Notes under the pieces: generated by a model | Seen by the model: the letters and a program-made list of their open reading frames with translations, nothing else | The model's database searches: none | Told to the model about the DNA's origin: nothing | Program-made: the position numbers and the translations under genes | Source of the DNA: Minisyncoccia bacterium | Lineage (GTDB): Bacteria > Patescibacteriota > Minisyncoccia > Phycocordibacterales > UBA9973 | Assembly (NCBI GenBank): GCA_049303835.1 | Contig: JBAQNN010000002.1 | Location: 94,492 to 158,491, forward strand | Reading direction: 5' to 3' | DNA length: 64,000 nt | Shown here: one piece after another, positions 9,755 through 38,127 of the stretch | How positions within the stretch are numbered: the first letter of the stretch is position 1 | How the letters are laid out: each line of letters begins with the position of its first letter

Positions 9755-10279
9755 ATGGAAAATTTTAAATTTATACTAATTTCAATAATTATTATCGCAG
9801 GCATGGGACTGCTCGGCTATTGGGCAATACGCACACTACCAACAGGAGACGTATATGTCAGCAAACAAAAACAACAAATACTTGAAGAAGAAAACAGAGA
9901 ACTCACAGAAGAAATCAACAGGTTAAAAAAAGAACTAACAGCATTACAACCAAAAGAAGAGGAAAAACCGGAAGTAACTACAACCACTCCAACCAAACCG
10001 ACAACTGTGACTTATAAACATCAAAGTCTGATCAATGATCTACAAAAACTTGTTACTGGTGGAATTTTTATGAAACAAGGATCACAAGGTACCAGAGTGG
10101 GCACTCTACAAACTTTCTTGAATATATATAATAATACTTCAAAAAAAGTGGACAACGACTATGGCGCGGGAATGAAAACAGACGTTATGAATTTCCAAAA
10201 AGCAGAAAAAATAACAGCGGATGGAGAAGCAGGGCCTACCACCTTCCAAAAAATGATAGATTGGCTCAAGAAACAATAG
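9755..10279 (+). CDS. membrane-anchored protein with C-terminal peptidoglycan-binding domain
   Basis: N-terminal TM helix, coiled-coil/Thr-Pro linker, PG_binding_1-like GSQGTRVGTLQTFLN...DGEAGPTTFQKM. Confidence 0.7.
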   Translation: MENFKFILISIIIIAGMGLLGYWAIRTLPTGDVYVSKQKQQILEEENRELTEEINRLKKELTALQPKEEEKPEVTTTTPTKPTTVTYKHQSLINDLQKLVTGGIFMKQGSQGTRVGTLQTFLNIYNNTSKKVDNDYGAGMKTDVMNFQKAEKITADGEAGPTTFQKMIDWLKKQ

Positions 10280-22875: not shown

Positions 22876-23973
22876 TTATCTATTCATTGGCATAATGAGA
22901 TAGGTAAAAGAAGAATCAGAGACCGGGGATACAACCATAGGACTTCCTGTGCCGGAGAGTTTTATAGAAACACTATCAGTGACAATTGACTGAAAACAGT
23001 CCAAAAAGTATTTATAGTTGAAAGAAAGTTCTATGTTTTCACCGTTTATAACGGCATCTAAATAAGTTTTATTTTCTCCCACATCGTTGTTGGAAGATGA
23101 AAACTCTAAAATCTTTTCTTTTGGAATAATCTTTAAATTAACTTGATTAAACTTGTCTGAAAAGATATTAGACAACTTTAAGGCATTCAATAAATCTTGT
23201 TTGAGAACCACTACCTCCGTAGTTGTGTTTTTGGGAATAATTTGACGATAATCTGGAAAAATACCGTCAATTATTCGTGAAGTTAAGTAAATGTTATCAG
23301 AAGAAAGTGAAATTTGATTTTTATTAAAACAAACCTTTAGGACCCCCTGAAATTCCCCAAAAACCTTCAAAATTTCAGCTATGTTTTTATAAGGAACAAG
23401 AATACCTGAAATTTCCTCAACCCCCTTCGCTTTTACCTTTTTTTCGGCCAACCTAAAAGAATCTGTTGAAACAAAAACCAAATTATCTCCGTTGGTATAT
23501 ATAAAAACACTTGAAATTTCTGGCTTTATATCGGAAACAGAGGAGCTATAATAAACTGATTTAATTCCCTCAATAAGTTTTTTTGATTCTATTTCAAAAC
23601 TTGTTCCCGTCACAGTGGGAATGGTTGGAAAATCTTCGTGAGGCTGACATTTTAATCTTATTTGACTTTTTTTTGTTTTAATTAAAAGATTTTCATCCTT
23701 TTTTTCCAACTGAACATTTTCATTTTGAGAAACGTTGGAAAAAATAGCGTTTAGCACCGAACCTGAGATAGCCAAAGTTCCTTCTTTTTCTATTTTAGCT
23801 GAAATTTCAACTTCAATACCCAAGTTTAAGTTGGTGGATCTCATTTTTAATGATTTACCCGAAGCAATCAATAAAATTGAGCTTAAAACGGGAAGGGTTA
23901 GATTTTTGCCGGTAATTCTCTCTACTTGAGATATTCCATTTTTGAGTTTTTCAACCGAACATTCTATTTTCAT
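22876..23973 (-). CDS. dnaN: DNA polymerase III beta sliding clamp
   Basis: 365 aa, three-domain clamp pattern, MKIECSVEKL..., position next to dnaA. Confidence 0.9.
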   Translation of the reverse strand: MKIECSVEKLKNGISQVERITGKNLTLPVLSSILLIASGKSLKMRSTNLNLGIEVEISAKIEKEGTLAISGSVLNAIFSNVSQNENVQLEKKDENLLIKTKKSQIRLKCQPHEDFPTIPTVTGTSFEIESKKLIEGIKSVYYSSSVSDIKPEISSVFIYTNGDNLVFVSTDSFRLAEKKVKAKGVEEISGILVPYKNIAEILKVFGEFQGVLKVCFNKNQISLSSDNIYLTSRIIDGIFPDYRQIIPKNTTTEVVVLKQDLLNALKLSNIFSDKFNQVNLKIIPKEKILEFSSSNNDVGENKTYLDAVINGENIELSFNYKYFLDCFQSIVTDSVSIKLSGTGSPMVVSPVSDSSFTYLIMPMNR

Positions 23974-24212
23974 ATATTTGTTTATATCTTATATAAATAA
24001 ATTATTAGTAATATTAGTGTTGTTAATAAGTGGATAATTATTTTTATATTTATTAAATATACTTATTTTTAATTTATAAACTGAACTTAAATCTAATAAC
24101 TTTTTGTCTTATGTTTATGAAAATATTTTTTATTTTTAATTTTTCTTTTTATTCGCGTTAATTAACAGATTTTGTCTGGTTTGTTATATTGTTTTTCCCT
24201 ACTTATAAACAG
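23974..24212. other. candidate oriC / DNA unwinding region (very AT-rich dnaA-dnaN spacer)
   Basis: 239-bp spacer, by eye >80% AT with A/T tracts. One near-consensus DnaA box at 24029-24037 (TTATCCACT on the minus strand). Confidence 0.5.
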
Positions 24213-25556
24213 CTATTTAAACATAATTCTTATTTGTTCCAACTCTTGCAGCAACGAAGAATCATTTTTTAAGTCAGTTTTTATTTTTAAACAAGAGTGG
24301 ATGACTGTCGTGTGATCCTTTCCCCCCAATTTTTGTCCAATTAGCGGATAAGATACATTAAAGTCTTCTCGGAGTAGATACATGACTACTTGTCTTGCTC
24401 TGACTATTTCCTTTTTTCTTGTTTTCTCATAAATTGAAGATTCTTCCAATTTATAATATTCACTCACTATCTTTACTACATCCTTTATGGCCATGTTTTT
24501 CTTTGGTCTAAGGTTGTTTTTGAGTAGATTTTTTACCTCTACAAGCGTCAATGGTTTGTTTTTTAGTTTATATTGGCAAACAATAAGGTTAAGACTTCCT
24601 TCCAGCTCCCTGATGTTTCCCTGAACTGCCCCCGCCACGTAATCTATCACCTCCTCAGCCAAATCAACATTTAATTCACGGAGTTTAACCTTTAAAATAG
24701 CCAGACGTGACTCATATTCAGGCTCAGATATGTCAACGATCATACCAGCAGCAAAACGAGACTTTAGTCTATCCGCCAGCTCTGGAATGTAGTTTGGGTG
24801 TTTGTCTGAAGAAAAGATAATCTGTTTGTTGTTTTCATAAAAAGTGTTAAATGTGTGAAAAAGTTCTTCTTGAATTTTTTCCATTTTTCCAATGAATTGG
24901 ATATCGTCTATTATTAACAGGTCGTATTTACGATATTTTTCTTTAAAAGAATTTGCTTTGTTGTTTTGGAGTGAATTTACAAAATCTGTGGCAAATTTTT
25001 CCAAGGTCATATAGTGTACCTTTTTATTTGGATATTTTTCTTTTATTGAGTTTCCCACCGCCTGAATCAAGTGTGTTTTTCCTAGTCCAGTACCTCCATA
25101 AATAAAAAATGGGTTATATTTTGTTCCAGGAGAGTCTATTATTGCCTGGGCTGCAGCATAAGCGAGCTCATTGAAAGTTCCGACGATAAACGAATTGAAT
25201 TGATAGCGTGGATTTAGGTTGTCTTCCAGATTTATGTATAAATCTTTTAGGGGTAGTTCTTTTTCTATGGTTATTTCATTTATTGGCGCTGGTTCTTGTT
25301 TTACATTTTCTGTTTTAACAATAGTATATTCTACGGCACGCATATTTTCATAGGCATCGGCAATGGTTTTGGTTATCAATTTGTGATATTTATTGATAAG
25401 CCAGTCGCGGACGAACTCGTTTGGCACCCCAATATAAACAATACCGGTATCTTCTTTTATGATGGATGTGTTTTTAAACCAGGTACTAAAATTTGCTTTT
25501 GATATACCAGATTCTATTTCCATTAGACAACTTTTCCACAACTCTTTTGTATTCAT
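24213..25556 (-). CDS. dnaA: chromosomal replication initiator DnaA
   Basis: 447 aa, AAA+ Walker A GGTGLGKTH, Walker B LLIIDDIQF, C-terminal DNA-binding HTH (GGKDHTTVIH). Confidence 0.95.
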   Translation of the reverse strand: MNTKELWKSCLMEIESGISKANFSTWFKNTSIIKEDTGIVYIGVPNEFVRDWLINKYHKLITKTIADAYENMRAVEYTIVKTENVKQEPAPINEITIEKELPLKDLYINLEDNLNPRYQFNSFIVGTFNELAYAAAQAIIDSPGTKYNPFFIYGGTGLGKTHLIQAVGNSIKEKYPNKKVHYMTLEKFATDFVNSLQNNKANSFKEKYRKYDLLIIDDIQFIGKMEKIQEELFHTFNTFYENNKQIIFSSDKHPNYIPELADRLKSRFAAGMIVDISEPEYESRLAILKVKLRELNVDLAEEVIDYVAGAVQGNIRELEGSLNLIVCQYKLKNKPLTLVEVKNLLKNNLRPKKNMAIKDVVKIVSEYYKLEESSIYEKTRKKEIVRARQVVMYLLREDFNVSYPLIGQKLGGKDHTTVIHSCLKIKTDLKNDSSLLQELEQIRIMFK

Positions 25557-25624
25557 TGTTTTTATCTTACACTATTTATAAAACAGGGGGTATATGTAAT
25601 ATCTTATTAACTATGTTGATAAGC

Positions 25625-25633
25625 TGTGGATAA
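25625..25633 (-). promoter_or_regulatory. perfect DnaA box (TGTGGATAA on + strand) in dnaA-rpmH spacer
   Basis: Read directly. Lies in the dnaA upstream region. Confidence 0.6.
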
Positions 25634-25710
25634 GTTTGTTGCCGGCATGATTTGTTTATCACACAAGACTTGGATTTGATAAAAACCGGATGATGTTATA
25701 TACTACCTGT

Positions 25711-25845
25711 ATGTCACAAACATATCAACCTAAAAAGAGAAAAAGAGCAAAAGCCCATGGATTTTTAGTTAGATCTAAGACCAAAACAGGCCAAAAGGTT
25801 CTTTTAAGAAGAAGAAGAAAAGGACGAGCGAAGCTCTCTGTTTAA
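25711..25845 (+). CDS. rpmH: 50S ribosomal protein L34
   Basis: Own translation (44 aa, below track cutoff): [44 protein letters not shown]. Confidence 0.9.
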
Positions 25846-25868
25846 AACACACTAGAAGCCGAAAAAGT

Positions 25869-26192
25869 ATGCTCAAAAAAATAAATAGGGCTGACAGAAA
25901 GACGGTGGAGAACATCTTCAAGAAAGGAAAATTCCTCAATTCTTTAAATTTGACCTTTAAATTTTTAAAAATTACCCAAGAAGACAAAAAAATCTCTATT
26001 TTAGTTCCTAAAAGTGTAGCAAAGTCGGCAGTAAAAAGAAATTTATTGAGGCGTTTAGGGTATAGAGCCATGGAAAAACAAATAAAGAGCTCCCCTTCTG
26101 GAATTATAGGGGTTTTTATATTTAAGAAGTATCAGGAGGATGTTTTGGTATTAGAAAATGAAATTAAAGACATTTTTTCTAAAATTAATTGA
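25869..26192 (+). CDS. rnpA: RNase P protein component
   Basis: 107 aa, basic, position after rpmH, AVKRNLLRRRL-type RNR motif (AVKRNLLRRLGY). Confidence 0.85.
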   Translation: MLKKINRADRKTVENIFKKGKFLNSLNLTFKFLKITQEDKKISILVPKSVAKSAVKRNLLRRLGYRAMEKQIKSSPSGIIGVFIFKKYQEDVLVLENEIKDIFSKIN

Positions 26193-26373
26193 TTTTTATC
26201 AAAAAAAGGTTTCAATTTTTAAAAAACCGAGTTGTGTTTTTTATCCGACTTGTTCCGAGTACACAAAACAAGCTATAGAAAAATATGGACTCCCTAAAGG
26301 AGTTCGTTTAGGATTTTTGCGTATTTTACGATGTCACCCCTGGCAAAAAAATCATATTGATCCACTACTTTGA
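26158..26373 (+). CDS. yidD: membrane protein insertion efficiency factor YidD
   Basis: 71 aa, CVFYPTCSEY...RCHPW motifs. Confidence 0.85.
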   Translation: MKLKTFFLKLIDFYQKKVSIFKKPSCVFYPTCSEYTKQAIEKYGLPKGVRLGFLRILRCHPWQKNHIDPLL

Positions 26374-26403
26374 TTTTTTTGTGTTTTCATATAGAATGAA
26401 TTA

Positions 26404-27138
26404 ATGCTTAGTAATATTTGGAATGTTGTTTTATATCAACCACTACTAAACGCCCTAGCTTTTCTCGTTTCCATTATCCCTGGTGGGGATGTGGGGATAG
26501 CTGTTATTCTCCTTACTATTCTTGTAAAAGTTATTCTTTTTCCTCTTTCTCAAAAATCCATAGAAAGTCAGGCTCAAATGAGCGTTTTAACCCCAGAACT
26601 CAATAAAATCAAAGCGAGCGGGGCAAGCAAAGAAGAACAAGCCAGGCAGACCTTTGAGCTCTATAAACAACACAAAACCAACCCTTTCTCTGGGTGTCTT
26701 TTGGTTTTAATTCAAATTCCCATTATTTTTGCCCTATACTATGTATTTTTGAAGGGAATAAATTTTGAAGGTGGGCACCTGTACTCCTTCATTCATATAC
26801 CAGAGCATAGTAATATGCTTTTCTTGGGTCTCCTAGACATTACTCAAAAAAGTCTGATTTTGGCTGTTTTGGCGGGCCTTTCCCAATACTTACAAGCACA
26901 TTTTGTACCAAAACCACCTGTTCCTTCTGTTGTAAGTGGTACTTCCCCCTCTTTCTCCGATAGTTTTGCCAAAAGTATGAACATGCAGATGAAGTACATC
27001 TTTCCTTTCATTGTCGCCTTTATCGCTTATAGTATTTCTGGCGCGGTTGCATTGTATTGGATTACGAGTAACCTATTTATGGTAGGACAACAGATTTATG
27101 TAAAAAAGAAGGAGTTTACAACATTAGTTATAAAGTAG
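26404..27138 (+). CDS. yidC: membrane insertase YidC (short Gram-positive-like form)
   Basis: 244 aa, five TM helices, conserved order after yidD. Confidence 0.85.
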   Translation: MLSNIWNVVLYQPLLNALAFLVSIIPGGDVGIAVILLTILVKVILFPLSQKSIESQAQMSVLTPELNKIKASGASKEEQARQTFELYKQHKTNPFSGCLLVLIQIPIIFALYYVFLKGINFEGGHLYSFIHIPEHSNMLFLGLLDITQKSLILAVLAGLSQYLQAHFVPKPPVPSVVSGTSPSFSDSFAKSMNMQMKYIFPFIVAFIAYSISGAVALYWITSNLFMVGQQIYVKKKEFTTLVIK

Positions 27139-27164
27139 AAAGTCATAAAGTTTATAAAGAATAG

Positions 27165-27650
27165 ATGGATAAAAACGAGATACAAAAATTAATAACAGAA
27201 TTGATTGAAAAAACTACAGTGAAATTAAATGATGTTTCTGTGGTAGAAGACGGGCCCAAAAACATCTGGGTTGCAGTAGAGGTGAGTGAACCACACTTCT
27301 TTATTTCACACGACGGTGAAGGTTTGCAAGCCCTAAACCATATTGTTCATAGAATTATTGAAGCTAAAAACCCTTCCCCCGCACCTGGTTTAGGAGAAAA
27401 AGCAGGGCTGGGAATCCTGGTGGATGTAAATGGTTTTCAAAAAAAGCACGTGGAGAATGTCCGAGCCATAGCTCATATGATGTCTGAGAGAGCGAGATAT
27501 TTTAAATCAAACATAGAAGTTGATCCGATGTCAGCCTTTGAGCGTAGAATTGTACACGAATTTTTATCCGATGCGCCTGATCTCAAAACCGAATCCATGG
27601 GTATGGGGCGTGATCGCCGAGTAGTTATCAAATATATCGGCTCTATTTAA
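27165..27650 (+). CDS. jag: Jag/SpoIIIJ-associated RNA-binding protein (KH + R3H)
   Basis: 161 aa, C-terminal R3H (ERRIVHEFL), position after yidC. Confidence 0.75.
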   Translation: MDKNEIQKLITELIEKTTVKLNDVSVVEDGPKNIWVAVEVSEPHFFISHDGEGLQALNHIVHRIIEAKNPSPAPGLGEKAGLGILVDVNGFQKKHVENVRAIAHMMSERARYFKSNIEVDPMSAFERRIVHEFLSDAPDLKTESMGMGRDRRVVIKYIGSI

Positions 27651-29007
27651 GTTCCAATTCCCAAAGGAAAGAGTCTTTTTTGTTTACAAAAAATAGATAA
27701 TTTTCCTCTGTATCAAGCGCGAGTTTTATGCTATCTGTCTCCTCTCCTCCTTCCACAGTGGTTGGGTCTAAAAGAAGAGTCGCATTTCCGGTAGTTAAAT
27801 CTATTTTCCAGAATTGATCTCCGAAAGATACTTCTCCACGATACCAAATATCCGGATATCCCGCTCCGGTAATTACTTTAGGAACTCCACAGTAGATGAC
27901 ATCGCTCACACTTCCCCAGACACATTTTTCCGGTAAAGTCCTTACCCCAAGAACTTCTGATGTCTTTGTGTCTGTATGGTAGATACCGAGAGCTAGGTTG
28001 TTGTTTCCATAAAGAATAGATTTTCCATCTGGACTAGTGAGGGTGGTCAATCCATTTATATTGCCGAAAATTTGGTGCAAGTTTTTATTATTTATTGGGT
28101 CCACGCCATATACAAATCCGGGGACAGAAGCGGCAGGTTTTGTGGTTAAAGTCATGAGTTTGTTGTTTGGCCACTCGGGCAACCACTCGGTGAATGGTGA
28201 ATCAAAGATTTGAGATTTTTTGTTGGTGGTCAGGTTTAAAGTTGTACCCACAATATTTTCTCCGACCTCAAACAGATAAAGAATACTTCCTTTGTCTCCC
28301 GACAGGCTCACATCCCTTATGTCTTCTGGCAAGAATGTTCCAGTTATTTCATTTTCTCCTGTAGTGTCTCCCCCCAAGACTTCTTTTGGCAAATTACCGA
28401 CAAAAGTAATGATGATGTTTCCATCTTCTTTTAAATATCTCATTATCACAGACTCTCCTTTGTTGCCAAAGAATGCTTCATATACTTTAGGAATCATTGT
28501 TCCGGAAAACTTCCTTTCTTCTATTTTATCCGCGAAAGTCTGATAGATGTTTCCTGTAGCTCTATCCACATACCTTAGAGCCGACACGAATTCTGTCGCC
28601 GGTGGGGTTGGTTTTGTGGTGGTCGTTGTTTTTGGAGTTGTTTCTTCCGGGGTGGTGGTATTTTCAGCAGGAGGAGTTGTCGGCGCTACCACAGGAGGAA
28701 TTTCTACTAGTCTTTCTTTAGTATAAACAGTAAAACCAGCCACGGGCATACTGGAGACCTTTTTAAGTTTTACTTCTTCCTGCTCGGGTCCTGGCTCGTA
28801 ACCGGAGACATCAGTAGGAGTGTCTCCTTTGGGCGTCGTCGGTGATTTGCCTCCCGTTCCAAATGGATTGAATTGTGAGATAAAGTTTGTCCCCTCTCCT
28901 TCTTCTCCTAGTGTCCCCGTGCCTTGTTGTAAATATAAAAATCCAAACACTACCAGGATAGTGATGATCAGAATTATTATTAAAAGTATAAAATTTCTTT
29001 TTGACAT
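27643..29007 (-). CDS. membrane-anchored protein with Thr/Pro linker and PD40/TolB-like beta-propeller repeats (last gene of T4SS-like operon)
   Basis: 454 aa, N-terminal TM helix, TTPPAENTTTPEETTPKTTTTTKPTPP linker, SPDGKSILY-type repeat. Confidence 0.5.
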   Translation of the reverse strand: MSKRNFILLIIILIITILVVFGFLYLQQGTGTLGEEGEGTNFISQFNPFGTGGKSPTTPKGDTPTDVSGYEPGPEQEEVKLKKVSSMPVAGFTVYTKERLVEIPPVVAPTTPPAENTTTPEETTPKTTTTTKPTPPATEFVSALRYVDRATGNIYQTFADKIEERKFSGTMIPKVYEAFFGNKGESVIMRYLKEDGNIIITFVGNLPKEVLGGDTTGENEITGTFLPEDIRDVSLSGDKGSILYLFEVGENIVGTTLNLTTNKKSQIFDSPFTEWLPEWPNNKLMTLTTKPAASVPGFVYGVDPINNKNLHQIFGNINGLTTLTSPDGKSILYGNNNLALGIYHTDTKTSEVLGVRTLPEKCVWGSVSDVIYCGVPKVITGAGYPDIWYRGEVSFGDQFWKIDLTTGNATLLLDPTTVEGGEETDSIKLALDTEENYLFFVNKKDSFLWELELK

Positions 29008-29016
29008 ATGTTTTTA

Positions 29017-29994
29017 TTATCTGCCATCCACTGACCAATGCCAAGGTTCGGATGGTAAGTTAGAAAGACCGTATTTACCGGCATTTGCTTGTAGCCACAC
29101 AAAGCACTTATTATCGCGGGTTTGAATAAATTTTCCATCACACTGTAGATCAAATGCCTTGCCATGGTTGTGATTTGATTGACCTGGAAGAGCTGTGGGT
29201 GGATTACATTTTGCACTTGCGTTTTCGTAGTCTCCATTACAATATTTTATTCTTAATTGTTTCTGTTGTTCTGTAGATCTATATCCCCCACCTGTTATGT
29301 TTAATCCGGCACTTTTTGATGCAACTAGCATGGCGTTAATGTTTGAAACAATATCTTTACATGCAAACATGCTAATTTGGGTTTTTACCACTCCGGCGCT
29401 ACATCCAGATGTAACTCCTGGGGGGTTCCCAGAATCGCTTGCTATTGCGTCTGCTAGTGTTACCTCTACTGTTATTTTTTCTAAACTACTCAGATCAGTC
29501 TTTAGAATATCTGGATTTATTTGGTTTAAGATTGTCCAAGCGCCCAAAGCGAGCACAAGTCCAAAAATAGCGCCAGTGATTCTATGTTTACCGTTTTCTT
29601 TATTAGATATCAGTTCACTAGTCATATACTCCAAACCACCCACCACTATCATTATCACAGCCAACACAGCGCATATACCGATGAAAATACGTATCATTAT
29701 GTTCAAATACTCACCTATTTTGGAATTTTCTCCCTCTGCGCTTGTCGGGTCAAAGGTTTTTAGTTGTCCATCTTCACACCCAGGAGTACCTTTTTCACAA
29801 GGCAGAGGGGCTAAAAAATTATATTTCAAATCATTTTCTTGTGTAGCATTTACGCAGGACACCCCATCAGGAGCAAGTATTTTATCTCCTGTGCATTCAA
29901 CTGCCAAAACAGAGTTGGTGGAGACAAAAAAACTAAAGATTAAAAAAACCAATTGTAATGAGACTATTATCTTTTTAAGCATATCTTTTTTCAT
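29017..29994 (-). CDS. fusion protein: VirB2/TrbC-like T4SS pilin domain + C-terminal M15 (VanY-like) peptidoglycan peptidase
   Basis: 325 aa: signal peptide, YNFLAPLPC motif, two hydrophobic helices (IRIFIGICAVLAVIMIVVGG, ITGAIFGLVLALGAWTILNQI), then GYRSTEQQ...SNHNHGKAFDL...EPWHWS. Confidence 0.6.
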   Translation of the reverse strand: MKKDMLKKIIVSLQLVFLIFSFFVSTNSVLAVECTGDKILAPDGVSCVNATQENDLKYNFLAPLPCEKGTPGCEDGQLKTFDPTSAEGENSKIGEYLNIMIRIFIGICAVLAVIMIVVGGLEYMTSELISNKENGKHRITGAIFGLVLALGAWTILNQINPDILKTDLSSLEKITVEVTLADAIASDSGNPPGVTSGCSAGVVKTQISMFACKDIVSNINAMLVASKSAGLNITGGGYRSTEQQKQLRIKYCNGDYENASAKCNPPTALPGQSNHNHGKAFDLQCDGKFIQTRDNKCFVWLQANAGKYGLSNLPSEPWHWSVDGR

Positions 29995-30980
29995 TAAAAT
30001 TCTACTCTTATTTCTTTACTTGTACCACCGAAAATTTTAAAGGTATCCTCAATCTCCAATTTTATTATAGATGTTCCCGACTGGCCCGACTGGACTGCGA
30101 GGGGCATAATATTCTTTTTATAAGCTGGCACAGCGACTTGATAATCGTTGATAAACCAATTAAATACGAGAGTCGGTATTCGTATTTCTTTAGGTGAGAT
30201 AAAATAAGGTACAGCCTCTATAATTTCATTTCCTTGTATCTTGTGTCCATCAGACAGAATCGTCTCCCAGACAGTTCCCGTAGTCGGGTTCTTTCTGTAA
30301 AATAGAATTTTTGGTTCTACTGTCCCCACAGTAATATTTGCAGCAGAAGAATATTTTTGATCTGTGGTGGAGGCCGTCACTCCTATAGTGCTAGTATCTT
30401 CCAGGTAATCATCTACATAGCTAAAAGAGTTTTTGCCATAACCGGAGGCATCTTGTTTGTTTGTATAGTCTCTCTTCCAAGCATAAACGAGGTTTTTAGA
30501 ATTTACTGTTTGGGTTCCATTTCTAATTTCTGGCATGGCCACTATTTTTATCTCGCTTCCGGTCGTCGGCATAGCCTTGCCACGATAAAAAGGTGGCACA
30601 TGAGAATCGTTTGCTTGCCAAAGGAGAGTCATAATGGATGGGCGGATCGTTATTCTCTTGTCTATAGTTCCGTCCGGTAGAGAGATAGAAGCTACGATGC
30701 TGGTCTCTTTTCCTGCCTCCGGAGCTGTAAGAGAAAAAGACTTTTTACCGATTCCAGACAAAACATTTTTCCCGTCCACAGACCATACGATGAGGACACT
30801 ATCCAGATTGCTGACATAGCTATTCAAGTTGATATTTACATTTTCATTTGGGCCAGGATTTTCCGGAGAGATGTCCACCAAGATACTACTTGAAGAAACA
30901 GCGGTTACTTCGGAAGGGAGAAAAATCCCTGTCAATAAAAGTGTTACTATTAAATATGAAAGTAAAAATCTTAATTGCAT
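29994..30980 (-). CDS. secreted protein of unknown function (T4SS-like operon)
   Basis: 328 aa, N-terminal signal/anchor. Its stop overlaps the start of the next gene by 1 nt. No motif recognised. Confidence 0.6.
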   Translation of the reverse strand: MQLRFLLSYLIVTLLLTGIFLPSEVTAVSSSSILVDISPENPGPNENVNINLNSYVSNLDSVLIVWSVDGKNVLSGIGKKSFSLTAPEAGKETSIVASISLPDGTIDKRITIRPSIMTLLWQANDSHVPPFYRGKAMPTTGSEIKIVAMPEIRNGTQTVNSKNLVYAWKRDYTNKQDASGYGKNSFSYVDDYLEDTSTIGVTASTTDQKYSSAANITVGTVEPKILFYRKNPTTGTVWETILSDGHKIQGNEIIEAVPYFISPKEIRIPTLVFNWFINDYQVAVPAYKKNIMPLAVQSGQSGTSIIKLEIEDTFKIFGGTSKEIRVEF

Positions 30981-31012: not shown

Positions 31013-31047
31013 AACTTTATAACTTTCAACTTTTGAACTTTATAACT
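31013..31047. repeat. five degenerate 7-8-nt direct repeats AACTTTNN (AAAGTT in mRNA sense)
   Basis: acAACTTTatAACTTTcAACTTTtgAACTTTatAACTa directly after the virB4 stop. Followed in mRNA sense by TGATATAAT. Confidence 0.6.
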
Positions 31048-32893
31048 ATTGTTTACCCTCAGTTTCCGCTCTCTCCTGCTCCTCCTTGGCTTTTCTGTTT
31101 GAAAGTATTTGGGAAGGGTCGGAAGTGATTATCTGGTCTTCAGTATAAGAAGAAATGACTTTTATGGCTACATGCTTTAGGCCGGCAAAGAATATTCCCT
31201 CCCCGAGGCCTGACTCCAAAAGCAGATATTTTTCTTCATCCGTCAGGTTGAAGGTTTTTTGTAAAATATCTATAGTGGTCGGTGATTGTTTAAGGAGAAG
31301 TTGAATAGAAGAGTTTGTAATGATGGGGACACCATAAGGAGATTTCATAAAGTCGGCGGCGTCTTGGGTGATGGTGGAAAGACCGAGATAATATTTTCTA
31401 CCTCTTTTGGCGATAGAGTATAAGAATGAAGCGGTGTCTTCAGATTTCATCATCCACCAAGCCTCATCTACTACCAAGAGGCGCTTTTTCAAATTTTTTC
31501 GTACGGTATTCCAGATATAATGCATGATGATATACATGGCGACGGGTTTTAACTCGTCTTCCATGTCGCGGACGGAAAATACTACGAATTTTTTATTGAT
31601 ATCCACATTGGACGGTCTGTTTAAGAATGTCGCCCAAGAACCCCTCGTATATTTGGCTAGTCTGGTGACGATTGAATCACTTCCATCCATCCCTCCGAGC
31701 ACCATTTCAAAATCTGACAGAAGAGGAGGTTCAATGTTTGAGAAATCAGATTCAGGAGTGATATCTTTCATCGCATAAGTTTCGGAAATAGCTCGGTCTA
31801 CCATTGAATCTTCTTCAGGGGTGAGTCCGCCTAGCATCAATCTGAAAAGCCCTACCAAGTTTATGATATTTGAACGGAGGACATCTTCGGCTGTTTCGCC
31901 TTCGTGAGGAATAGGTAAATCAAAAGGATTGATGTGGTGATCGGAAGAAAGAGAAATATTGAAATATCTTCCACCGACCGCCTCTGACAAGAACTCGTAT
32001 TCCCTTTCCGGATCTATCACTATGACATCAACATCAAACATTAAAGATCTCAAAATTTCTAGCTTAGTGGCATACGATTTTCCGGAGCCGGACTTGGCAA
32101 AGGTCACGGAGTTGTAATTCTCTAGTGAAAATCTATCAAAGATGACTAGGCTGGAATTGTGCCTGTTGATGCCGTAAAGTATTCCTTTGTTGGAAGTCAG
32201 GTCAAAAGAAATAAATGGGAATACACTACTAAGTGGTTCAGAATTCAACTTCTGATGAATACCAAGTATGTCTGTATTTATGGGTATGACGCTCTTAAAA
32301 CCGTCTTCTTGTTGGAAGAGAGCCGGTTTGATATAGATGAGTTTTGATTCAAGGATTGATTTTATCTCATTTTCTATTTTGAAAAGTTCCAACTCGTTGT
32401 CGGCATAAATGGTGATGTAAATACCCACATCAAACATTTTTTCTTGCGCTTGGATCAGATTATTGCGCAGGCCCTCTAGGTCTTGGTAGGCAGTATCAAG
32501 CATAGGGTCGCGCACCATACCCTTACTCTCTCGTACACTTATCTGACTCTGCACCTCGGCGACTTTTTTCTGAAATTGTCTCAAGACCAGAGAAGTGTCT
32601 ATCGGATGAATAAAAATTGAAATATCAAAAACTTTATCCAGATTGATTATAGGAGAGAACCAATTGTCTGTCAGAAATCTAGGATAGGAAATGATGAAAA
32701 AAGTACGAGCGATTTTATCTCCCAAGCTTATGGATTTAGACGATATTTTCAGAGCTGAAGGAGCGATGACATCTTGGAGCTCCAGGGTGGCGGATTGGTA
32801 GATTTCTTCCGGCATCACTGCCAAGACGGAAGCTCTCACTTCCTTTTCCTCCCCTCCTTTTTGTCCACCTAATAATTTTTTTAAAAAGTCCAT
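31046..32893 (-). CDS. virB4: VirB4/TraE-type T4SS ATPase, C-terminal 3/4 (split gene, part 2)
   Basis: 615 aa, Walker A AKSGSGKSY, Walker B LLVVDEAWWMM, ITQDAADF. The N-terminus matches the DxIAPS...yP region that sits at about aa 215 of single-chain Gram-positive VirB4 homologues. Confidence 0.85.
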   Translation of the reverse strand: MDFLKKLLGGQKGGEEKEVRASVLAVMPEEIYQSATLELQDVIAPSALKISSKSISLGDKIARTFFIISYPRFLTDNWFSPIINLDKVFDISIFIHPIDTSLVLRQFQKKVAEVQSQISVRESKGMVRDPMLDTAYQDLEGLRNNLIQAQEKMFDVGIYITIYADNELELFKIENEIKSILESKLIYIKPALFQQEDGFKSVIPINTDILGIHQKLNSEPLSSVFPFISFDLTSNKGILYGINRHNSSLVIFDRFSLENYNSVTFAKSGSGKSYATKLEILRSLMFDVDVIVIDPEREYEFLSEAVGGRYFNISLSSDHHINPFDLPIPHEGETAEDVLRSNIINLVGLFRLMLGGLTPEEDSMVDRAISETYAMKDITPESDFSNIEPPLLSDFEMVLGGMDGSDSIVTRLAKYTRGSWATFLNRPSNVDINKKFVVFSVRDMEDELKPVAMYIIMHYIWNTVRKNLKKRLLVVDEAWWMMKSEDTASFLYSIAKRGRKYYLGLSTITQDAADFMKSPYGVPIITNSSIQLLLKQSPTTIDILQKTFNLTDEEKYLLLESGLGEGIFFAGLKHVAIKVISSYTEDQIITSDPSQILSNRKAKEEQERAETEGKQ

Positions 32894-32975: not shown

Positions 32976-33614
32976 CTACTCTATTTTAATCTTACCCTCC
33001 AATTCTCCGGGGTTGAAAACTTTATAAAATACTTCCACTACTTCTTCGGTATTCAGCTGGGCCGAATTTATTCCACAACGAGACAATCCTTGCTGGATGA
33101 CAGCTACCCTCTCTTCTAGTTGAGATCTCTTCTCTTCAAAATCTATCTGTTTTGCGGCTCGCACTTCTTCTGAATTCTTTTTGGAAAATAGCTTTCCCAA
33201 TATCCCGGAATCTGATTTTAAAGTTGTACGTGAATATGGTATTACAATAAAGAAGTTTTTTGTCATGATACTGACAGATTCAGTAAAGCTTCTTATAAAC
33301 TCTATATATTCCCTAGTTTGCAACTTGATCAACGGCTCATTTTGCACTTTTACTCTGTTTTCTAAAAGGAGTAAATAAGGTCTGATGTCCAGCCTTCTGG
33401 ATTGGACTGATATCTGTACCGGAAAATCCAAGGTGTTTAAAAAATTTTGAAATTGAAGAATGGTCGCATGTTGTTCATCGGAAGATTTCAAGGATAGGTT
33501 GACCGAGTTTGCGAGTACGATGGCTCGGAGCTCACCTTCTTTTAGCACGATGATGCCATCGCGTATCTCTTTGATTGGTATAAATTCTTGTGTTGCTTTT
33601 GCTTTTAATGCCAT
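32976..33614 (-). CDS. virB4: VirB4 N-terminal domain (split gene, part 1)
   Basis: 212 aa, ATQEFIPIKEIRDGIIVL...NLSLKSSDEQHATILQFQNFLNTLDFPVQI resembles the N-terminus of Tn916 Orf16/PrgJ-type VirB4 (recalled from memory). Confidence 0.65.
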   Translation of the reverse strand: MALKAKATQEFIPIKEIRDGIIVLKEGELRAIVLANSVNLSLKSSDEQHATILQFQNFLNTLDFPVQISVQSRRLDIRPYLLLLENRVKVQNEPLIKLQTREYIEFIRSFTESVSIMTKNFFIVIPYSRTTLKSDSGILGKLFSKKNSEEVRAAKQIDFEEKRSQLEERVAVIQQGLSRCGINSAQLNTEEVVEVFYKVFNPGELEGKIKIE

Positions 33615-33623
33615 AAATTTTTT

Positions 33624-33700
33624 CTAGGGCTTTAGGCTCTAGGCGTTAGGCTTTAGCTTTTGTTTCGCTAGAGCCTAGTGCCTAAGGCCTAGCTGCCTGC
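33624..33700. repeat. heptad hairpin element copy B
   Basis: CTAGGGC TTTAGGC TCTAGGC GTTAGGC TTTAGC / ttttgtttc / GCTAGA GCCTAGT GCCTAAG GCCTAGC TGCCTGC. The last 12 nt supply the end of the prgI-like ORF. Confidence 0.8.
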
Positions 33701-34129
33701 ATTTTTCTTTTTACTCAAATCAAGCACGTCCAAGCTCCAGGCCAAATCTCGCAACCTACTTCCATCCAATTTTGAACTGACATTTGGCAGTACTTCATTT
33801 TTATTTTCATCCATGTTTGTAGTTTGCGATTTATTATTTGCTACCCTACCGGTCTTCTTCTTCCAAATATAAAGTTTGTTTTGAGAAAAATATTTAAACC
33901 CTGCTTCAATCATGTTTATAAAAGGCTTATTGTTTGGTTTATAGAAAGTAAGAGCTAAAGAAAACCCGGCGATAATCAAAATAGGGATGGCGCTAAAGAC
34001 GAGCCCTAATAATTTATAAAGCACAAAACACAAACCTGCTCCGCCGGCCAAATAAGCAAACTCCCTAAAAGTAAAAGGGCCGAATATTTTATCTTCTATT
34101 TCTAAAAATTGTGGAACCTTGAATTGCAT
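33689..34129 (-). CDS. PrgI-family (VirB3-like) two-TM T4SS protein
   Basis: MQFKVPQFLEIEDKIFGPFTFREFAYL then two TM helices. I prefer the ATG at 34129 over the track GTG at 34141. Confidence 0.65.
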   Translation of the reverse strand: MQFKVPQFLEIEDKIFGPFTFREFAYLAGGAGLCFVLYKLLGLVFSAIPILIIAGFSLALTFYKPNNKPFINMIEAGFKYFSQNKLYIWKKKTGRVANNKSQTTNMDENKNEVLPNVSSKLDGSRLRDLAWSLDVLDLSKKKNAGS

Positions 34130-34140
34130 AAATACAGGCA

Positions 34141-34542
34141 CTAGGCTTTAGGCGCTAGGCTCTAGCTGAGAAATTAGTTTATTCAACATTTTCATAATTT
34201 CTTCTAATAAAGAACCCACTTTATTATAATCTAATTTTGCAGTTTTGGGTAATTTTTTAGATATTATTAGCTGAGTTTCTAGCTCCGCACCAGAAGCAAA
34301 GGCAATAAGTAAGAATCTTTTGAATTCTGGAATTCCTCCTCGCATTTTCCCTTCTGCAATATTAGAAGGTATGGATACTGCCGCCCTACGAATTTGTGAG
34401 GTTAAACCATAAATTTCTTCCTTCGAAAATTTGTCTGTGAGTTCATAAACTGCTATTACAAGCTCTATCGATTTTTGCCACACGACTAAATCTCTATATG
34501 TTTTCATGTGTTTTTTACTAGCGCCTAATGCCTAGAGCCTAG
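34141..34542 (-). mobile_element. heptad hairpin element copy C carrying a four-helix-bundle (IVS-type) gene in place of the loop
   Basis: Left arm 34141-34166: CTAGGC TTTAGGC GCTAGGC TCTAGC. Right arm 34518-34542: CTAGC GCCTAAT GCCTAGA GCCTAG. By hand pairing the arms form a ~26-bp helix around the ORF. Confidence 0.55.
34148..34507 (-). CDS. four-helix-bundle protein (23S rRNA intervening-sequence protein family)
   Basis: 119 aa, MKTYRDLVVWQKSIELVIAVYELT...SIPSNIAEG...AELETQLIIS, the signature pattern of this family. The last codons (LEPSA) are encoded by the repeat arm. Confidence 0.85.
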   Translation of the reverse strand: MKTYRDLVVWQKSIELVIAVYELTDKFSKEEIYGLTSQIRRAAVSIPSNIAEGKMRGGIPEFKRFLLIAFASGAELETQLIISKKLPKTAKLDYNKVGSLLEEIMKMLNKLISQLEPSA

Positions 34543-35127: not shown

Positions 35128-38127
35128 CTAGTGTCCTCCGTGTCCCGCATCGTGTCCAGCATCATGTCCCCCACCAGAAGGCGCTTCCGGAGGATGTTCG
35201 TGTTTTGGTTCGGCAGATGCCTTTGGTGTGGCGTGTCCTCCGCCTCCCTTTCCTTCTTTCTTGTGGCCACCTTCTTTGTCGTGCTCTTCCTTATGGAACA
35301 CATCTTTATCTTTTCCTAGATCATATTTTTCTTTTTCAAGTCTCCTCATTTGATCTGGTGCGGTTTTTAGCCTATTTAATTGACCCAGTTCTGTTGTGGC
35401 TTTAAACGCAGCATTCTTTATTGCAGTCATTCTAGGATCGTTATCAGGAACGTTCTGCTTGACAAGCTCTTGAAGTTTTAAATCTTCCCTCTTCATAGTA
35501 AACGTGAGTTGGGCTATTCTCTTTTCTACCCCTTTCAGATTGACTTCATCTTTACCGTTTTTATTTTTTTCAACCAGTTTAGTGATTTCTCCCGAAATGT
35601 CGTCTTTTACCTCCATATTTTTTCCTTCTTCCATTATTGTAGTTAAATTTTCTAACGCCACAGTATTCTCTGTCAACCTGTCTTCTATCTTTTGTAGTTT
35701 TTTATGCCCTTTTTCAATATCAGTGGCGAATGATCCCTGGGCCGCTTCTCCCGTGCCTTTTACTCCCGTAGCTTCCTTGAATTTTCTGGTCACTCCAAAC
35801 GCTGCTGCTCCGGCTGTTGTGACCTTTGCCGCCGTAGCTATACCCGCTATACCCGCGATACCACCGATTCCAGCAAGTGCTGCTGCCACCCCAGCTTTCA
35901 TTACAACCTTCTGGGTTCTTCCTTTGTTTATATCGTCTATTGTGGGTTCTTTGTGTGCTTCTTTAAACATTCTCTCAAATCTTTCTTTGTCGAATCCACT
36001 TCCTTCTCTTGTTTGTGCTTCTTTTTCTGCATCCTTTTTTTCTTCAGCCCAGTTCTTATATTCTTTTGAATCTTTGTAATTGTTTTGGTCAACCATTCCA
36101 CCACTTGCTTTCAACAAAGAACGCGCGAGAGAAGCCGTTAATCCATTTTGTCCGAAGTTATTTATAAATTCTTTCATTCTGTCGTGATTGAGTTCATCCG
36201 CCGATTTGTATCCCTTTGGTCGCTCACCGTTTTTCTTCTTAAATTCTTCCTCACTAATTCCATTCTTCTTTGCTATCGCAAGATTACTGTCGTATTCATC
36301 TTGTTTTTTCTTTGACCATGCTTTTACTTCGTCACCACTCATACTTGTTTTATAGAGCTTTGATTCTTCTTCTAATTTCTTCTTTTGCTTTTCTTTTCGT
36401 CCTTGGTATCCTCCCTCATTTGCAGAACCCAAATTTATGCCGGTTCCGCTTACAAATTTCTTTCCAAGACCAGTGGCCCGAATATCGAAGGATGCCTTTG
36501 ATCCATAATCTGCTGTTTTTAGCATCTTTCTTGCTGCCCAACCAGTGAACCCCCTTTCTTTATTGTTTGCGGCGGTTTTTAGACCCTCACTGCTTGCAAC
36601 TTTACTCGATATCGCGCCTATTGCTTGTGTTGCCATAAGCGATGTACCTCCTGTAGCAGCACCCAAGGCGAGTCCCCCAATTAGTTTTGCACCAGTCATC
36701 AATTTTTCTCCCAAGGCGCCGGAACCCTTTTTGGCATATTCTGTAGCTTTGAGTAAGAGAATTAGAATTACTAAGGCAGGAATTATGATGAGCAAGATAG
36801 TTTCTATGAAGCTCGCGTTTGATTTAGAAATAATTTGGTCAAATATCTTTGCTTGAATCAGCATAAATATAAAATACATAAAGAACATGAAAATCGGCGC
36901 CATAAAAGCGGTTTTAAGCAAACGTTTGAACCAAGCATCCCAACCCAAATATTCAACACTACTTAAAATTGGAATGGTTGAAGACATAAAAGCAAAAGGA
37001 GAGAATATAATTAGAACAAAAAGTTCAATCATACGGCCCACAAAGCTGATGCCGGCAACAAAAAAACAATATGCGGCAAAAAACATGAGCACTCCAGCGA
37101 TGATTGTGATTCCAATCAACATACCCCCAGAAACTTCAGTTGAAGCTTTAACTCCTCCTATTTCTTGGGTTTTAAGTTTTGCAAAAAAATCTGGGGTTAA
37201 TAAACTAGTTGGATTGAATGCGTTTACCATACCACCAGCGACATCCTTTTCTCCATTTGCCGTGTTTTGATATTCCCGTACTTTACCATCTGCGTTTACT
37301 GTGTTGACTTCCATTTTATTGTAAAAAACCAAAGCCAAAACATTAGAAGTATCAATAATTACTTGAGTAAAGAACATAGAAAAGTTTATCAAGAGAGCAA
37401 TAACGATGACTTTCACTATCATTTTTTTTGCATCGTGTCCCGCTAAATCTAAAATTATTTTTATAGCGATAAAAAGGAGAATGAGTATAAAGAAAATATT
37501 TGAAAGATCTCGAACTACACCCCAAGCAGTAGGGATGAATGTAGAATTAGCAAACAATTTGCCACTAAGTGTGATGAATATTAAAACATTAAAAAAATAA
37601 GCTGATAACCACAACAAGAAAGAAGGAATAACATAAAAAAGACCATAAGATGCCTGCACAAAACATCCGGGATAAAAGGAAGAGTCACTTCCTCCTAGCC
37701 CGGTTACTCCAAATCCGCAAATATTTTTTCCAATTTCATTCTCAAATGCAGTTTTTGGGCTATTTGTATTTTGTACATCTGTTCCATCTGCCGCTGCATC
37801 AGATGCTTTTGGTCTCCACTGCCCCCCTCCAGCTTCACAAACACTTTTTGTCTTTTCAGTTACTACACTATTTGTGGTACAAATTCCGGTTACTTCGTCT
37901 TTATTGTCTGGAACCCATCTTTTAGTAAAACCCTCAAGTAGTTCAAGATCCGTACATTTTTGTTGTGTTTCAAACTTTTCTCTTCGTATTATATCGCCAT
38001 TCCTATTTGAAACTTCACAGGTTCCTGTTCCTGTTTGTGCCTCTACTTTCTCAGCCATCCCAAATACCCCGCCCAGTACGATGAGTATCAATAAATATGG
38101 TATTATTTTTTTTACTCTATTTTTCAT
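35128..38127 (-). CDS. polytopic membrane protein, VirB6/TrbL-like, with Cys-containing N-terminal ectodomain, long coiled-coil tail and His/Gly-rich C-terminus
   Basis: 999 aa: signal peptide, about 8 TM helices between aa ~150 and 480, charged coiled-coil region. Ends with GGGGHATPKASAEPKHEHPPEAPSGGGHDAGHDAGHGGH. Confidence 0.5.
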   Translation of the reverse strand: MKNRVKKIIPYLLILIVLGGVFGMAEKVEAQTGTGTCEVSNRNGDIIRREKFETQQKCTDLELLEGFTKRWVPDNKDEVTGICTTNSVVTEKTKSVCEAGGGQWRPKASDAAADGTDVQNTNSPKTAFENEIGKNICGFGVTGLGGSDSSFYPGCFVQASYGLFYVIPSFLLWLSAYFFNVLIFITLSGKLFANSTFIPTAWGVVRDLSNIFFILILLFIAIKIILDLAGHDAKKMIVKVIVIALLINFSMFFTQVIIDTSNVLALVFYNKMEVNTVNADGKVREYQNTANGEKDVAGGMVNAFNPTSLLTPDFFAKLKTQEIGGVKASTEVSGGMLIGITIIAGVLMFFAAYCFFVAGISFVGRMIELFVLIIFSPFAFMSSTIPILSSVEYLGWDAWFKRLLKTAFMAPIFMFFMYFIFMLIQAKIFDQIISKSNASFIETILLIIIPALVILILLLKATEYAKKGSGALGEKLMTGAKLIGGLALGAATGGTSLMATQAIGAISSKVASSEGLKTAANNKERGFTGWAARKMLKTADYGSKASFDIRATGLGKKFVSGTGINLGSANEGGYQGRKEKQKKKLEEESKLYKTSMSGDEVKAWSKKKQDEYDSNLAIAKKNGISEEEFKKKNGERPKGYKSADELNHDRMKEFINNFGQNGLTASLARSLLKASGGMVDQNNYKDSKEYKNWAEEKKDAEKEAQTREGSGFDKERFERMFKEAHKEPTIDDINKGRTQKVVMKAGVAAALAGIGGIAGIAGIATAAKVTTAGAAAFGVTRKFKEATGVKGTGEAAQGSFATDIEKGHKKLQKIEDRLTENTVALENLTTIMEEGKNMEVKDDISGEITKLVEKNKNGKDEVNLKGVEKRIAQLTFTMKREDLKLQELVKQNVPDNDPRMTAIKNAAFKATTELGQLNRLKTAPDQMRRLEKEKYDLGKDKDVFHKEEHDKEGGHKKEGKGGGGHATPKASAEPKHEHPPEAPSGGGHDAGHDAGHGGH

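Follow-up and report, generated by a model that had tools for sequence, protein, structure and literature searches.

What would a peptidoglycan peptidase do at the end of a secretion-system pilin? The question is raised by a gene in a 64-kb stretch of DNA from a Minisyncoccia bacterium (the window; coordinates are positions in this stretch, and residue numbers are those of the 325-amino-acid (aa) protein that the gene encodes). This gene (29017..29994, minus strand) joins a VirB2-like pilin domain of a type IV secretion system (T4SS) to a VanY/LdcB-type zinc peptidase with an intact active site. It lies inside a T4SS operon, no other pilin gene and no VirB1 gene is found nearby, and in close relatives the peptidase half is replaced by unrelated wall-active domains. 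The product is probably a modular VirB2-like pilin of the Paceibacteria T4SS that tethers an enzyme acting on wall peptides to the secretion apparatus.

The T4SS is near-universal in the Patescibacteria, and the fusion bears on how it passes through the cell wall; it is essential for the epibiotic life of one genetically tested Patescibacterium (PMC10633639). The individual parts, namely the T4SS of Patescibacteria, PF18895 pilins, and VanY peptidases, are already known, and fused proteins sit in databases. We found no paper on the fusion, its conservation, or cassette exchange, although the searchable literature is incomplete and the absence is unproven.

Domain architecture of the pilin-peptidase

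The pilin-peptidase open reading frame (ORF), defined from the ORF list and the sequence, runs uninterrupted from an ATG start to a double stop (stop codon at 29017..29019). A preliminary description of this gene had its limits exactly right; the strand, which was left unstated there, is minus. The ATG overlaps the TAA of the upstream 328-aa gene by one base (TAATG, 29996-29992) and the downstream gene begins 9 nucleotides (nt) past the double stop, so that the pilin-peptidase lies within a minus-strand operon whose genes are tightly packed.

The protein begins with a predicted Sec-type signal peptide (aa 1-31; 29902..29994) composed of a KK-rich n-region, a hydrophobic core, and a VLA/VE end. 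It is evident both in a hydropathy scan, which gave hydrophobic segments at aa 4-34 (signal-like), 93-126, and 138-159, and as a helix (3-24) in an AlphaFold2 model; the putative cleavage site (VLA|VE) is read from the sequence rather than from a dedicated predictor. The model was built on 77 homologues and has a mean predicted local distance difference test (pLDDT) score of 85.8. A Cys-rich N-terminal ectodomain follows (aa 32-91; 29722..29901), at which relatives carry adhesin-like inserts. The N-terminal part contains Cys 34, 47, 66, and 73, and the ectodomain a small beta-hairpin in the model (58-65/77-81) and a Y-x-x-L-A-P-L-P motif (Y58-N-F-L61-A-P63-L-P-C66), in which Y58 and L61 are invariant and P63 is nearly so among the 77 homologues. 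The T4SS_pilin (VirB2-like) two-helix membrane hairpin (aa 92-159; 29518..29721) is modeled as helices 92-125 and 129-159 (pLDDT 88-93), and its basic inter-helix loop, SNKENGKHR, is rich in K, R, and H, includes the invariant K132, and has acidic flanks. At aa 160-194 (29413..29517) are the conserved motif I-N-P-D-I-L..D..S-L-x-x-V-x-V-x-V and then a flexible linker, where the cassette junction described below is located. N160 and P161 are nearly invariant and the rest of the linker is poorly conserved in the same alignment; model confidence is low from aa 160 to about 190-194 (pLDDT 62-69). The strand-like SLxxVxVxV segment, directly after INPDLLxxD, is common to bare and fused pilins and marks the cassette start; it may be a site of processing, serve as an anchor for recombination, or form a structural strand.

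Pfam PF18895 (T4SS_pilin) matches aa 100-157 when searched with the whole protein (E=7.9e-8, 32.7 bits against a cut-off of 26.6) and scores 37.3 bits with the hairpin segment alone; by the curated cut-off, the protein belongs to this family. All 23 of the stand-alone relatives in alignment A2 match PF18895 as well, and the hairpin is 53-81% identical to stand-alone pilins.

The C-terminal domain (aa 195-325; 29020..29412) is a VanY/LdcB-type LAS (M15B) zinc peptidase, compact in the model (pLDDT ~97). Pfam PF02557 (VanY) matches aa 213-321 (E=9.5e-13, 48.5 bits against a cut-off of 25, model positions 6-128 of 132), which places the protein in the VanY/M15B family by the curated cut-off, and a fold search confirmed the LAS fold. 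The characteristic motifs are G-Y-R239-S..Q244, S273-N-H275-N-H-G-K-A-F-D282, and E316-P-W-H319-W, the S-x-H-x6-D motif aligning with SEHQLGLAVD of VanYB. From the structures of LdcB and VanY, we take H275, D282, and H319 to be the zinc ligands, E316 the catalytic residue, and R239, Q244, and S273 to be involved in substrate binding. All of these residues are invariant in the 77 homologues, which makes it very likely that the peptidase is active. Five of the six Cys in this part of the protein (C198, C212, C252, C263, and C297) are likewise invariant, as would fit an extracytoplasmic location. The same fold and the same S-x-H-x6-D, E-x2-H, and R/Q site are found in the VanY/LdcB (DacB) M15B carboxypeptidases and in phage M15 endolysins (Ply500, LysB4). 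Orthology to LdcB or to the resistance enzyme VanY was rejected, the scores being 33.1 bits against an NCBIfam equivalog cut-off of 275 (LdcB) and 26 bits against 400 (vanY_BG). The sub-threshold NCBIfam matches are LdcB, VanY-B/G, and a mycoplasma family, the 'Mbov_0395 pilin-like conjugal transfer protein'.

The preliminary description had recognized a signal peptide, a Cys-rich stretch with YNFLAPLPC, and two hydrophobic helices separated by a polar loop, all of which are borne out by hydropathy, alignment, and AlphaFold. Its reading of this half as a T4SS pilin agrees with the above-cut-off PF18895 match and with the place of the gene inside a T4SS operon, and its LAS zinc peptidase motifs with the PF02557 match and the fold; profile searches and structure prediction, applied to both halves, support each domain. 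The fusion itself is conserved. Among the best 120 homologues, down to about 40% identity, a subfamily hidden Markov model (HMM) detects the pilin core in all, and about 115 contain VanY too. These homologues are named 'D-alanyl-D-alanine carboxypeptidase family protein' (NCBI) or 'type IV secretory pathway VirB2 component (pilin)' (JGI), neither of which covers both halves.

Cassette exchange at the C-terminus

We compared the window with related loci that encode other enzymes at the same place. Against an NlpC/P60 variant (L006), blastn gave 86.3% identity from 33566 to 29478 and 87.9% from 29008, and none across 29009..29477 (minus strand), the sole stretch of the locus without DNA homology to this variant; against a YkuD variant (L007), the corresponding stretch is 29009..29444. 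In both comparisons the flanks are 86-88% identical on either side. The exchange is sharper still among L006, L007, and a third locus, L011, which come from three different samples: their flanks are 97-98% identical to one another and their cassettes are unrelated (L006, 3978-4507, NlpC/P60; L007, 3978-4534, YkuD; L011, from about 8491-8538, SLT_3-like), one breakpoint falling at about codon 163-175 and the other no more than 3 nt from the stop codon. Judged by sequence comparison, the enzyme is an exchangeable cassette.

The same picture emerges from the proteins. Three relatives (P0061, P0062, and P0055), whose genes occupy the same operon slot, are almost identical to the window protein in signal peptide and hairpin and diverge fully past INPDIL..D..SLxxVxVxV. 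Their tails match NlpC/P60 (P0061, E=1.1e-11), a YkuD L,D-transpeptidase (P0062, E=6e-13), and, below the cut-off, the lysozyme-like SLT_3 (P0055, E=2.9e-4; an ES...GLFQIN motif is present). No extra or immunity-like ORF is swapped along with the cassette in the L006, L007, and L011 loci, and the next gene, 4-10 nt past the stop, is 87-98% identical irrespective of the cassette. In two further loci (L008 and L009), the slot holds a bare pilin of 147-151 aa that ends just past the INPDIL..SLxxVxVxV motif. Neither silent cassettes nor junction repeats, as in the pilE/pilS model, were found in the window (tblastn with 111 tail sequences; blastn-short with the junction), and for this reason the exchange presumably proceeds by homologous recombination with DNA from other strains.

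Distribution and diversity of tailed pilins

We searched 1.84 billion representative proteins with a profile built from the pilin part; 28,078 relatives scored E<=0.001, and 660 of them E<=1e-30. We took a census of the tails in the best 145 subfamily representatives. Tails of at most 25 aa are found in only 10 of the 145, tails longer than 80 aa in 107, and 90 of those 107 exceed 130 aa; the long tails form 20 clusters that are unrelated by BLAST. Pfam recognized VanY (14), NlpC/P60 (12), YkuD (5), Peptidase_M15_4 (4), SLT_2 (4), and SLT_3 (3), and more rarely Amidase_5 (2), SLT (2), and Extensin-like_C (1). Every one of these tail families is peptidoglycan-active.

The largest tail cluster has 22 members (P0152, P0159, P0160, P0167, and 18 others; alignment A6) of about 155 aa, which share the motif GTEFWLHGG...H..G...VDL...EGNHWH with invariant E, H, H, D, E, H, and H. 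A LAS-like assignment of this cluster found no support, as neither Pfam, nor a PDB profile search, nor hhalign against a VanY alignment gave a match; it may be an undescribed metallo-enzyme domain. Modules are not confined to the C-terminus: in P0036, P0114, and P0107, inserts of the carbohydrate-binding or Ig-like kind (CBM_10, TIG, DUF5018) separate the signal peptide from the pilin core, indicating that both outward-facing ends of the pilin can carry extra modules. One relative, P0149 (443 aa), has two tandem pilin cores followed by an SLT_3-like tail.

The T4SS operon and its neighborhood

The minus-strand operon comprises, in order, genes for a 795-aa protein and a 999-aa polytopic protein, several small genes, and those for PrgI, TraC-like/TrsD, VirB4, a 328-aa protein, the pilin-peptidase, and a 454-aa protein. 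The order is kept in L003 (in which the homologue is 68% identical), L005 (44%), L004 (41%), L006-L009, and L011, and in the window and all of these loci (L003-L009 and L011) the pilin slot is that of VirB4 plus two genes. We searched for further pilin-like ORFs in the 64 kb with the subfamily HMM on six-frame ORFs and with Pfam on small membrane ORFs, and found none; likewise, Pfam detected no SLT- or CHAP-type VirB1 hydrolase in the operon.

Among the T4SS components, PrgI (33689..34141) is a VirB3-like membrane protein (Pfam PrgI, E=1.2e-8, 35.8 bits against a cut-off of 27). The N-terminal region of VirB4 is encoded as a gene of its own, the 212-aa TraC-like/TrsD (32976..33614), for which the NCBIfam VirB4 N-terminal and TrsD matches are all below their cut-offs; PF26593 (TraC-like) is present in every orthologous locus. 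The P-loop part of the VirB4-like ATPase (615 aa; 31046..32893) belongs to the CD1110 family (conju_CD1110, 364.5 bits against a cut-off of 325; Pfam P-loop_TraG, E=7.5e-25). We considered and rejected the split VirB4 as a sign of a decaying locus: a two-gene VirB4 is normal in all related loci, and because the same split recurs in every one of them, it is a lineage feature and not a pseudogene.

The two immediate neighbors of the pilin-peptidase have no family match. Upstream is the translationally coupled (TAATG), signal-anchored 328-aa protein (29994..30980), of which L003-L009 and L011 have a 322-328-aa counterpart at the same place, directly before the pilin gene; downstream is the 454-aa protein (27643..29007), N-terminally anchored with a Pro/Thr-rich stalk, which is kept (439-485 aa) in related loci independent of the cassette type. 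The 999-aa polytopic protein (35128..38127) has 8 transmembrane segments predicted by hydropathy and no Pfam match; it stands where VirB6 would be expected and is, by position, a candidate VirB6-like channel protein. It has a Cys-rich N-terminal ectodomain and a His/Gly-rich C-terminal tail ending GGGHDAGHDAGHGGH, and related loci contain a large protein orthologous to it.

Another small gene inside the operon, beside prgI, encodes a 23S-rRNA-IVS protein (PF05635, E=6e-36; 34148..34507, minus strand, like all the operon genes above). The same gene is present in L008 (3490-3852) and L011 (3560-3928), and a GIY-YIG gene takes its place in L003 (5620-5874); from these comparisons, the spot is a second small variable slot of the operon. 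On the opposite strand past the operon are jag/yidC/yidD/rnpA, then dnaA and dnaN, an origin gene set (22876..27650) that adjoins the T4SS operon. The Paceibacteria T4SS has been described as MPF-FATA-like and located beside the replication origin (PMC12102498), and the window arrangement agrees. Wall-related genes outside the operon include an M23 peptidase with LysM repeats (49044..50159, plus strand) and a small anchored PG_binding_1 protein (9755..10279, plus strand).

Proposed role of the tethered enzyme

We propose that the Sec pathway would insert the protein into the membrane, that the signal peptide would be removed, and that the mature protein would form a membrane hairpin with its basic loop on the inner side and its two ends on the outer side, as predicted from the sequence and the model. 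This topology is the one known for VirB2-family pilins. It would bring both the Cys-rich N-terminus and the peptidase to the outer face of the membrane, against the peptidoglycan, where the VanY/LdcB-type enzyme would be held on a flexible linker of ~35 aa. Because the hairpin would be the own pilin-like subunit of the T4SS, the enzyme would be tethered where the apparatus, or any filament, assembles, and there it would cut or trim stem peptides of the peptidoglycan, a VirB1-like opening of the wall by another class of enzyme. Through recombination between the pilin part, which is conserved, and the gene downstream, the module would be swapped (for NlpC/P60, YkuD, lytic-transglycosylase-like, or other LAS domains) or deleted. 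The physical association of the protein with the T4SS, the specificity of the enzyme, and the wall that it targets (the cell's own or a host's) we infer.

A VirB1-like, wall-modifying role is suggested by three features in combination: the protein is the sole pilin-like subunit, its slot tolerates many wall-active domains or none, and the variants include domains of the VirB1 type. VirB1-like hydrolases of Gram-positive T4SSs have SLT and NlpC/P60/CHAP domains (PMC12102498). Like the window protein, the VirB1-type hydrolases (A. tumefaciens VirB1; the Gram-positive PrgK, pIP501 TraG, and ICEBs1 CwlT) are membrane-anchored, wall-facing enzymes from a T4SS operon, and their SLT-like and NlpC/P60/CHAP domains also occur in sister variants of the window gene. 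They are, however, lytic transglycosylase/CHAP enzymes, whereas the window protein is a LAS/M15B enzyme with a pilin as its anchor and a strain-polymorphic catalytic module. The difference in catalytic domain puts it outside the VirB1 family; by analogy, it plausibly works like VirB1.

Several points weigh against this proposal. VanY and YkuD are not lytic as VirB1 is, and trimming of the terminal D-Ala alone opens no hole in the wall. Relatives of the L008/L009 type make do with a bare pilin and have a cluster devoid of hydrolase genes, which shows that the machine can dispense with the enzyme. Moreover, were the role one of pure housekeeping on the cell's own wall, strains that are 97-98% identical would not be expected to exchange their cassettes. 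As for the pilin, the term VirB2/TrbC-like used in the preliminary description holds for a PF18895 pilin, but the relation to canonical VirB2/TrbC is only sub-threshold: TrbC/VirB2 (PF04956) scores 22.2 bits with the whole protein and 25.2 bits with the segment, below its cut-off of 27.9, and matches 14 of the 23 stand-alone relatives at E<=0.01. Aligning A2 by hhalign with 28 Agrobacterium/Rhizobium-type VirB2 sequences gave no significant similarity (probability 0.9%, E=0.061), with only the region of the first transmembrane helix aligned and both profiles narrow; the VirB2 seed for this profile is 98% identical to a UniRef VirB2. PDB pilins were matched neither by the sequence profile nor by the fold search. 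As had been pointed out, VirB2 of classical systems is a separate small protein, the best 120 canonical homologues being 102-130 aa long with one of 193 aa. In contrast to such small single-domain precursors (about 100-130 aa), the window protein has 325 aa, with an extra 165-aa module. We know of no PF18895 protein from the Patescibacteria for which pilus formation or T4SS contact has been demonstrated experimentally.

Alternative explanations

The strain-level turnover of cassettes, which a tethered VirB1-like enzyme explains poorly, looks like diversifying selection at a host, phage, or competitor interface. This resemblance is our reason for keeping a host-directed 'enzymatic pilus' as a serious, if somewhat doubtful, rival. 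The protein would then form a VirB2-type filament with a wall cutter on every subunit, which would drill through or loosen the peptidoglycan of the host where the cells touch, and the turnover would reflect differing host wall chemistries or an arms race. Both termini of VirB2-type pilins face outward, and any pilus made by this locus must use this gene, as the only pilin-like one. The geometry of the F pilus reportedly makes a 15-kDa domain on a 35-aa linker sterically possible. A C-terminal domain that is polymorphic at the strain level, in the manner of polymorphic effectors, and at least 20 unrelated tail families also favor such a filament, as do the N-terminal CBM_10, TIG, and DUF5018 inserts of relatives and the weak similarity of the YkuD variants to Tlde1, an effector domain of the type VI secretion system (T6SS) (E=0.0055, below the cut-off). 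Consistent with it as well, proteins with the T4SS-pilin domain are among the most highly expressed unknown genes in the parasitic Minisyncoccus/Microsyncoccus (PMC10936435).

On the other hand, no such pilus is known from the Patescibacteria. The cassette brings no immunity-like ORF with it when it is exchanged, and the gene downstream remains conserved. An enzyme displayed in this way would be turned toward the wall of the producer as well, and a carboxypeptidase or an L,D-transpeptidase would be a poor wall breacher. To our knowledge, methanogenic archaea have no murein. The hosts of the cultivated Minisyncoccia-type Paceibacteria are methanogenic archaea (PMC10936435), which also counts against a filament that loosens host peptidoglycan. 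We consider it rather improbable that a filament or membrane platform with an enzyme on every subunit uses a strain-swappable head to open the host wall or to evade pilus-targeting agents; if true, such a structure would add a functionally new class to the pilins of secretion systems and would amount to a polymorphic-effector system that has no immunity genes.

Polymorphic toxins and effectors (CdiA-CT, Rhs, MafB; T6SS Tae, Tlde1) combine a constant N-terminus with swapped, unrelated catalytic C-termini. The window locus shares with them the sharp-junction exchange between close relatives (flanks 86-88% and 97-98% identical) and a cassette repertoire (NlpC/P60, L,D-transpeptidase-like, metallopeptidase, lysozyme-like) that overlaps that of wall-targeting effectors. 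It differs from them in lacking a cognate immunity gene, and its N-terminus is a structural pilin rather than a trafficking domain.

A pro-protein is a further alternative, which we judge unlikely: the enzyme would be cleaved off during pilin maturation, leaving an ordinary small pilin and freeing the wall enzyme in soluble form where secretion takes place. A parallel exists in RP4 TrbC, which undergoes C-terminal processing. The bare pilins of relatives end just past INPDLL..SLxxVxVxV, exactly where the cassette starts, the linker is flexible and poorly conserved, and a bulky domain on each subunit may hinder polymerization. Nevertheless, neither Pfam nor NCBIfam finds a recognizable TraF-like or other maturation protease in the operon, no conserved cleavage motif is known, and the idea is purely inferential.

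It is very improbable that the protein is a housekeeping LdcB/VanY-like carboxypeptidase of ordinary wall maturation, held in the membrane by a two-helix anchor whose resemblance to a pilin is accidental, with no functional tie to the T4SS. Its active site is of the LdcB/VanY type, its NCBI name is only that of a D-alanyl-D-alanine carboxypeptidase family protein, and a PBP1 gene is close by, beside dnaN. Against these stand the fixed position in the T4SS operon with translational coupling, the bare pilin in the same slot of some relatives, scores far under the NCBIfam equivalog cut-offs for LdcB (33 against 275 bits) and VanY (26 against 400 bits), and the NlpC/P60, YkuD, or SLT-like domains carried instead by near-identical strains; a housekeeping carboxypeptidase could not be swapped in this way for enzymes of quite different chemistry.

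A frameshift or chimeric assembly fusing two neighboring genes is ruled out for practical purposes, given that the identical 325-aa protein is encoded on contigs of two independent assemblies from different sequencing runs (and also in an NCBI 'Minisyncoccia bacterium' metagenome-assembled genome), that about 115 of 120 homologues have the same architecture, and that the frame is continuous and the model confident for hairpin and enzyme, with the linker lower. In L010 (ENA contig_53038), the whole locus is broken into short ORFs (VirB4 of 416 aa, YidC in two pieces, and a pilin of 111 aa); this looks like an indel-rich assembly in which the fusion was artefactually split rather than made.

Relation to described pilins

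The VirB2-like pilins described from the Patescibacteria, or candidate phyla radiation (PMC10633639, PMC12102498), resemble the window protein in their signal peptide, PF18895 hairpin, VirB4/PrgI/TrsD neighbors, and MPF-FATA-like cluster beside oriC. As described, they are small and often form arrays of 2-11 paralogues, whereas the window has a single gene with a 165-aa C-terminal enzyme module. One entry in Table S3 of the 2025 survey (PMC12102498), KKT24894.1, was assigned as VirB2 by the CONJScan T_virB2 HMM, has PF00877 (NlpC/P60) as its best Pfam match, and is in the VirB4+2 position; the text of that survey (PMC12102498) passes over pilin-enzyme fusions. In concept, the closest precedent comes from Streptococcus sanguinis, whose PilB and PilC are type IV pilins of the 'modular pilin' kind, with a functional globular module grafted onto the C-terminus for display on the filament. 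These, however, belong to an unrelated filament superfamily, the modules are adhesins or lectins in minor pilins and not enzymes, and cassette exchange is undescribed for them.

Implications

Most genomes with VirB2-like pilins have no VirB1 wall hydrolase (PMC12102498); in the Paceibacteria, an enzyme built into the pilin would explain this absence. The finding would extend the idea of the modular pilin from type IV pili to VirB2-type pilins. The type of cassette is a simple genomic marker that can be correlated with host range, and the soluble C-terminal domains, together with active-site mutants, are testable constructs. The fusion is of interest for both T4SS biology and that of the Patescibacteria as epibionts. 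Conserved in other respects, the machine varies most in its enzyme module; this points to the cell-wall interface as the site of selection, and the fusion of such a module to the pilin suggests how these bacteria may get a T4SS through their own cell wall or that of a host.

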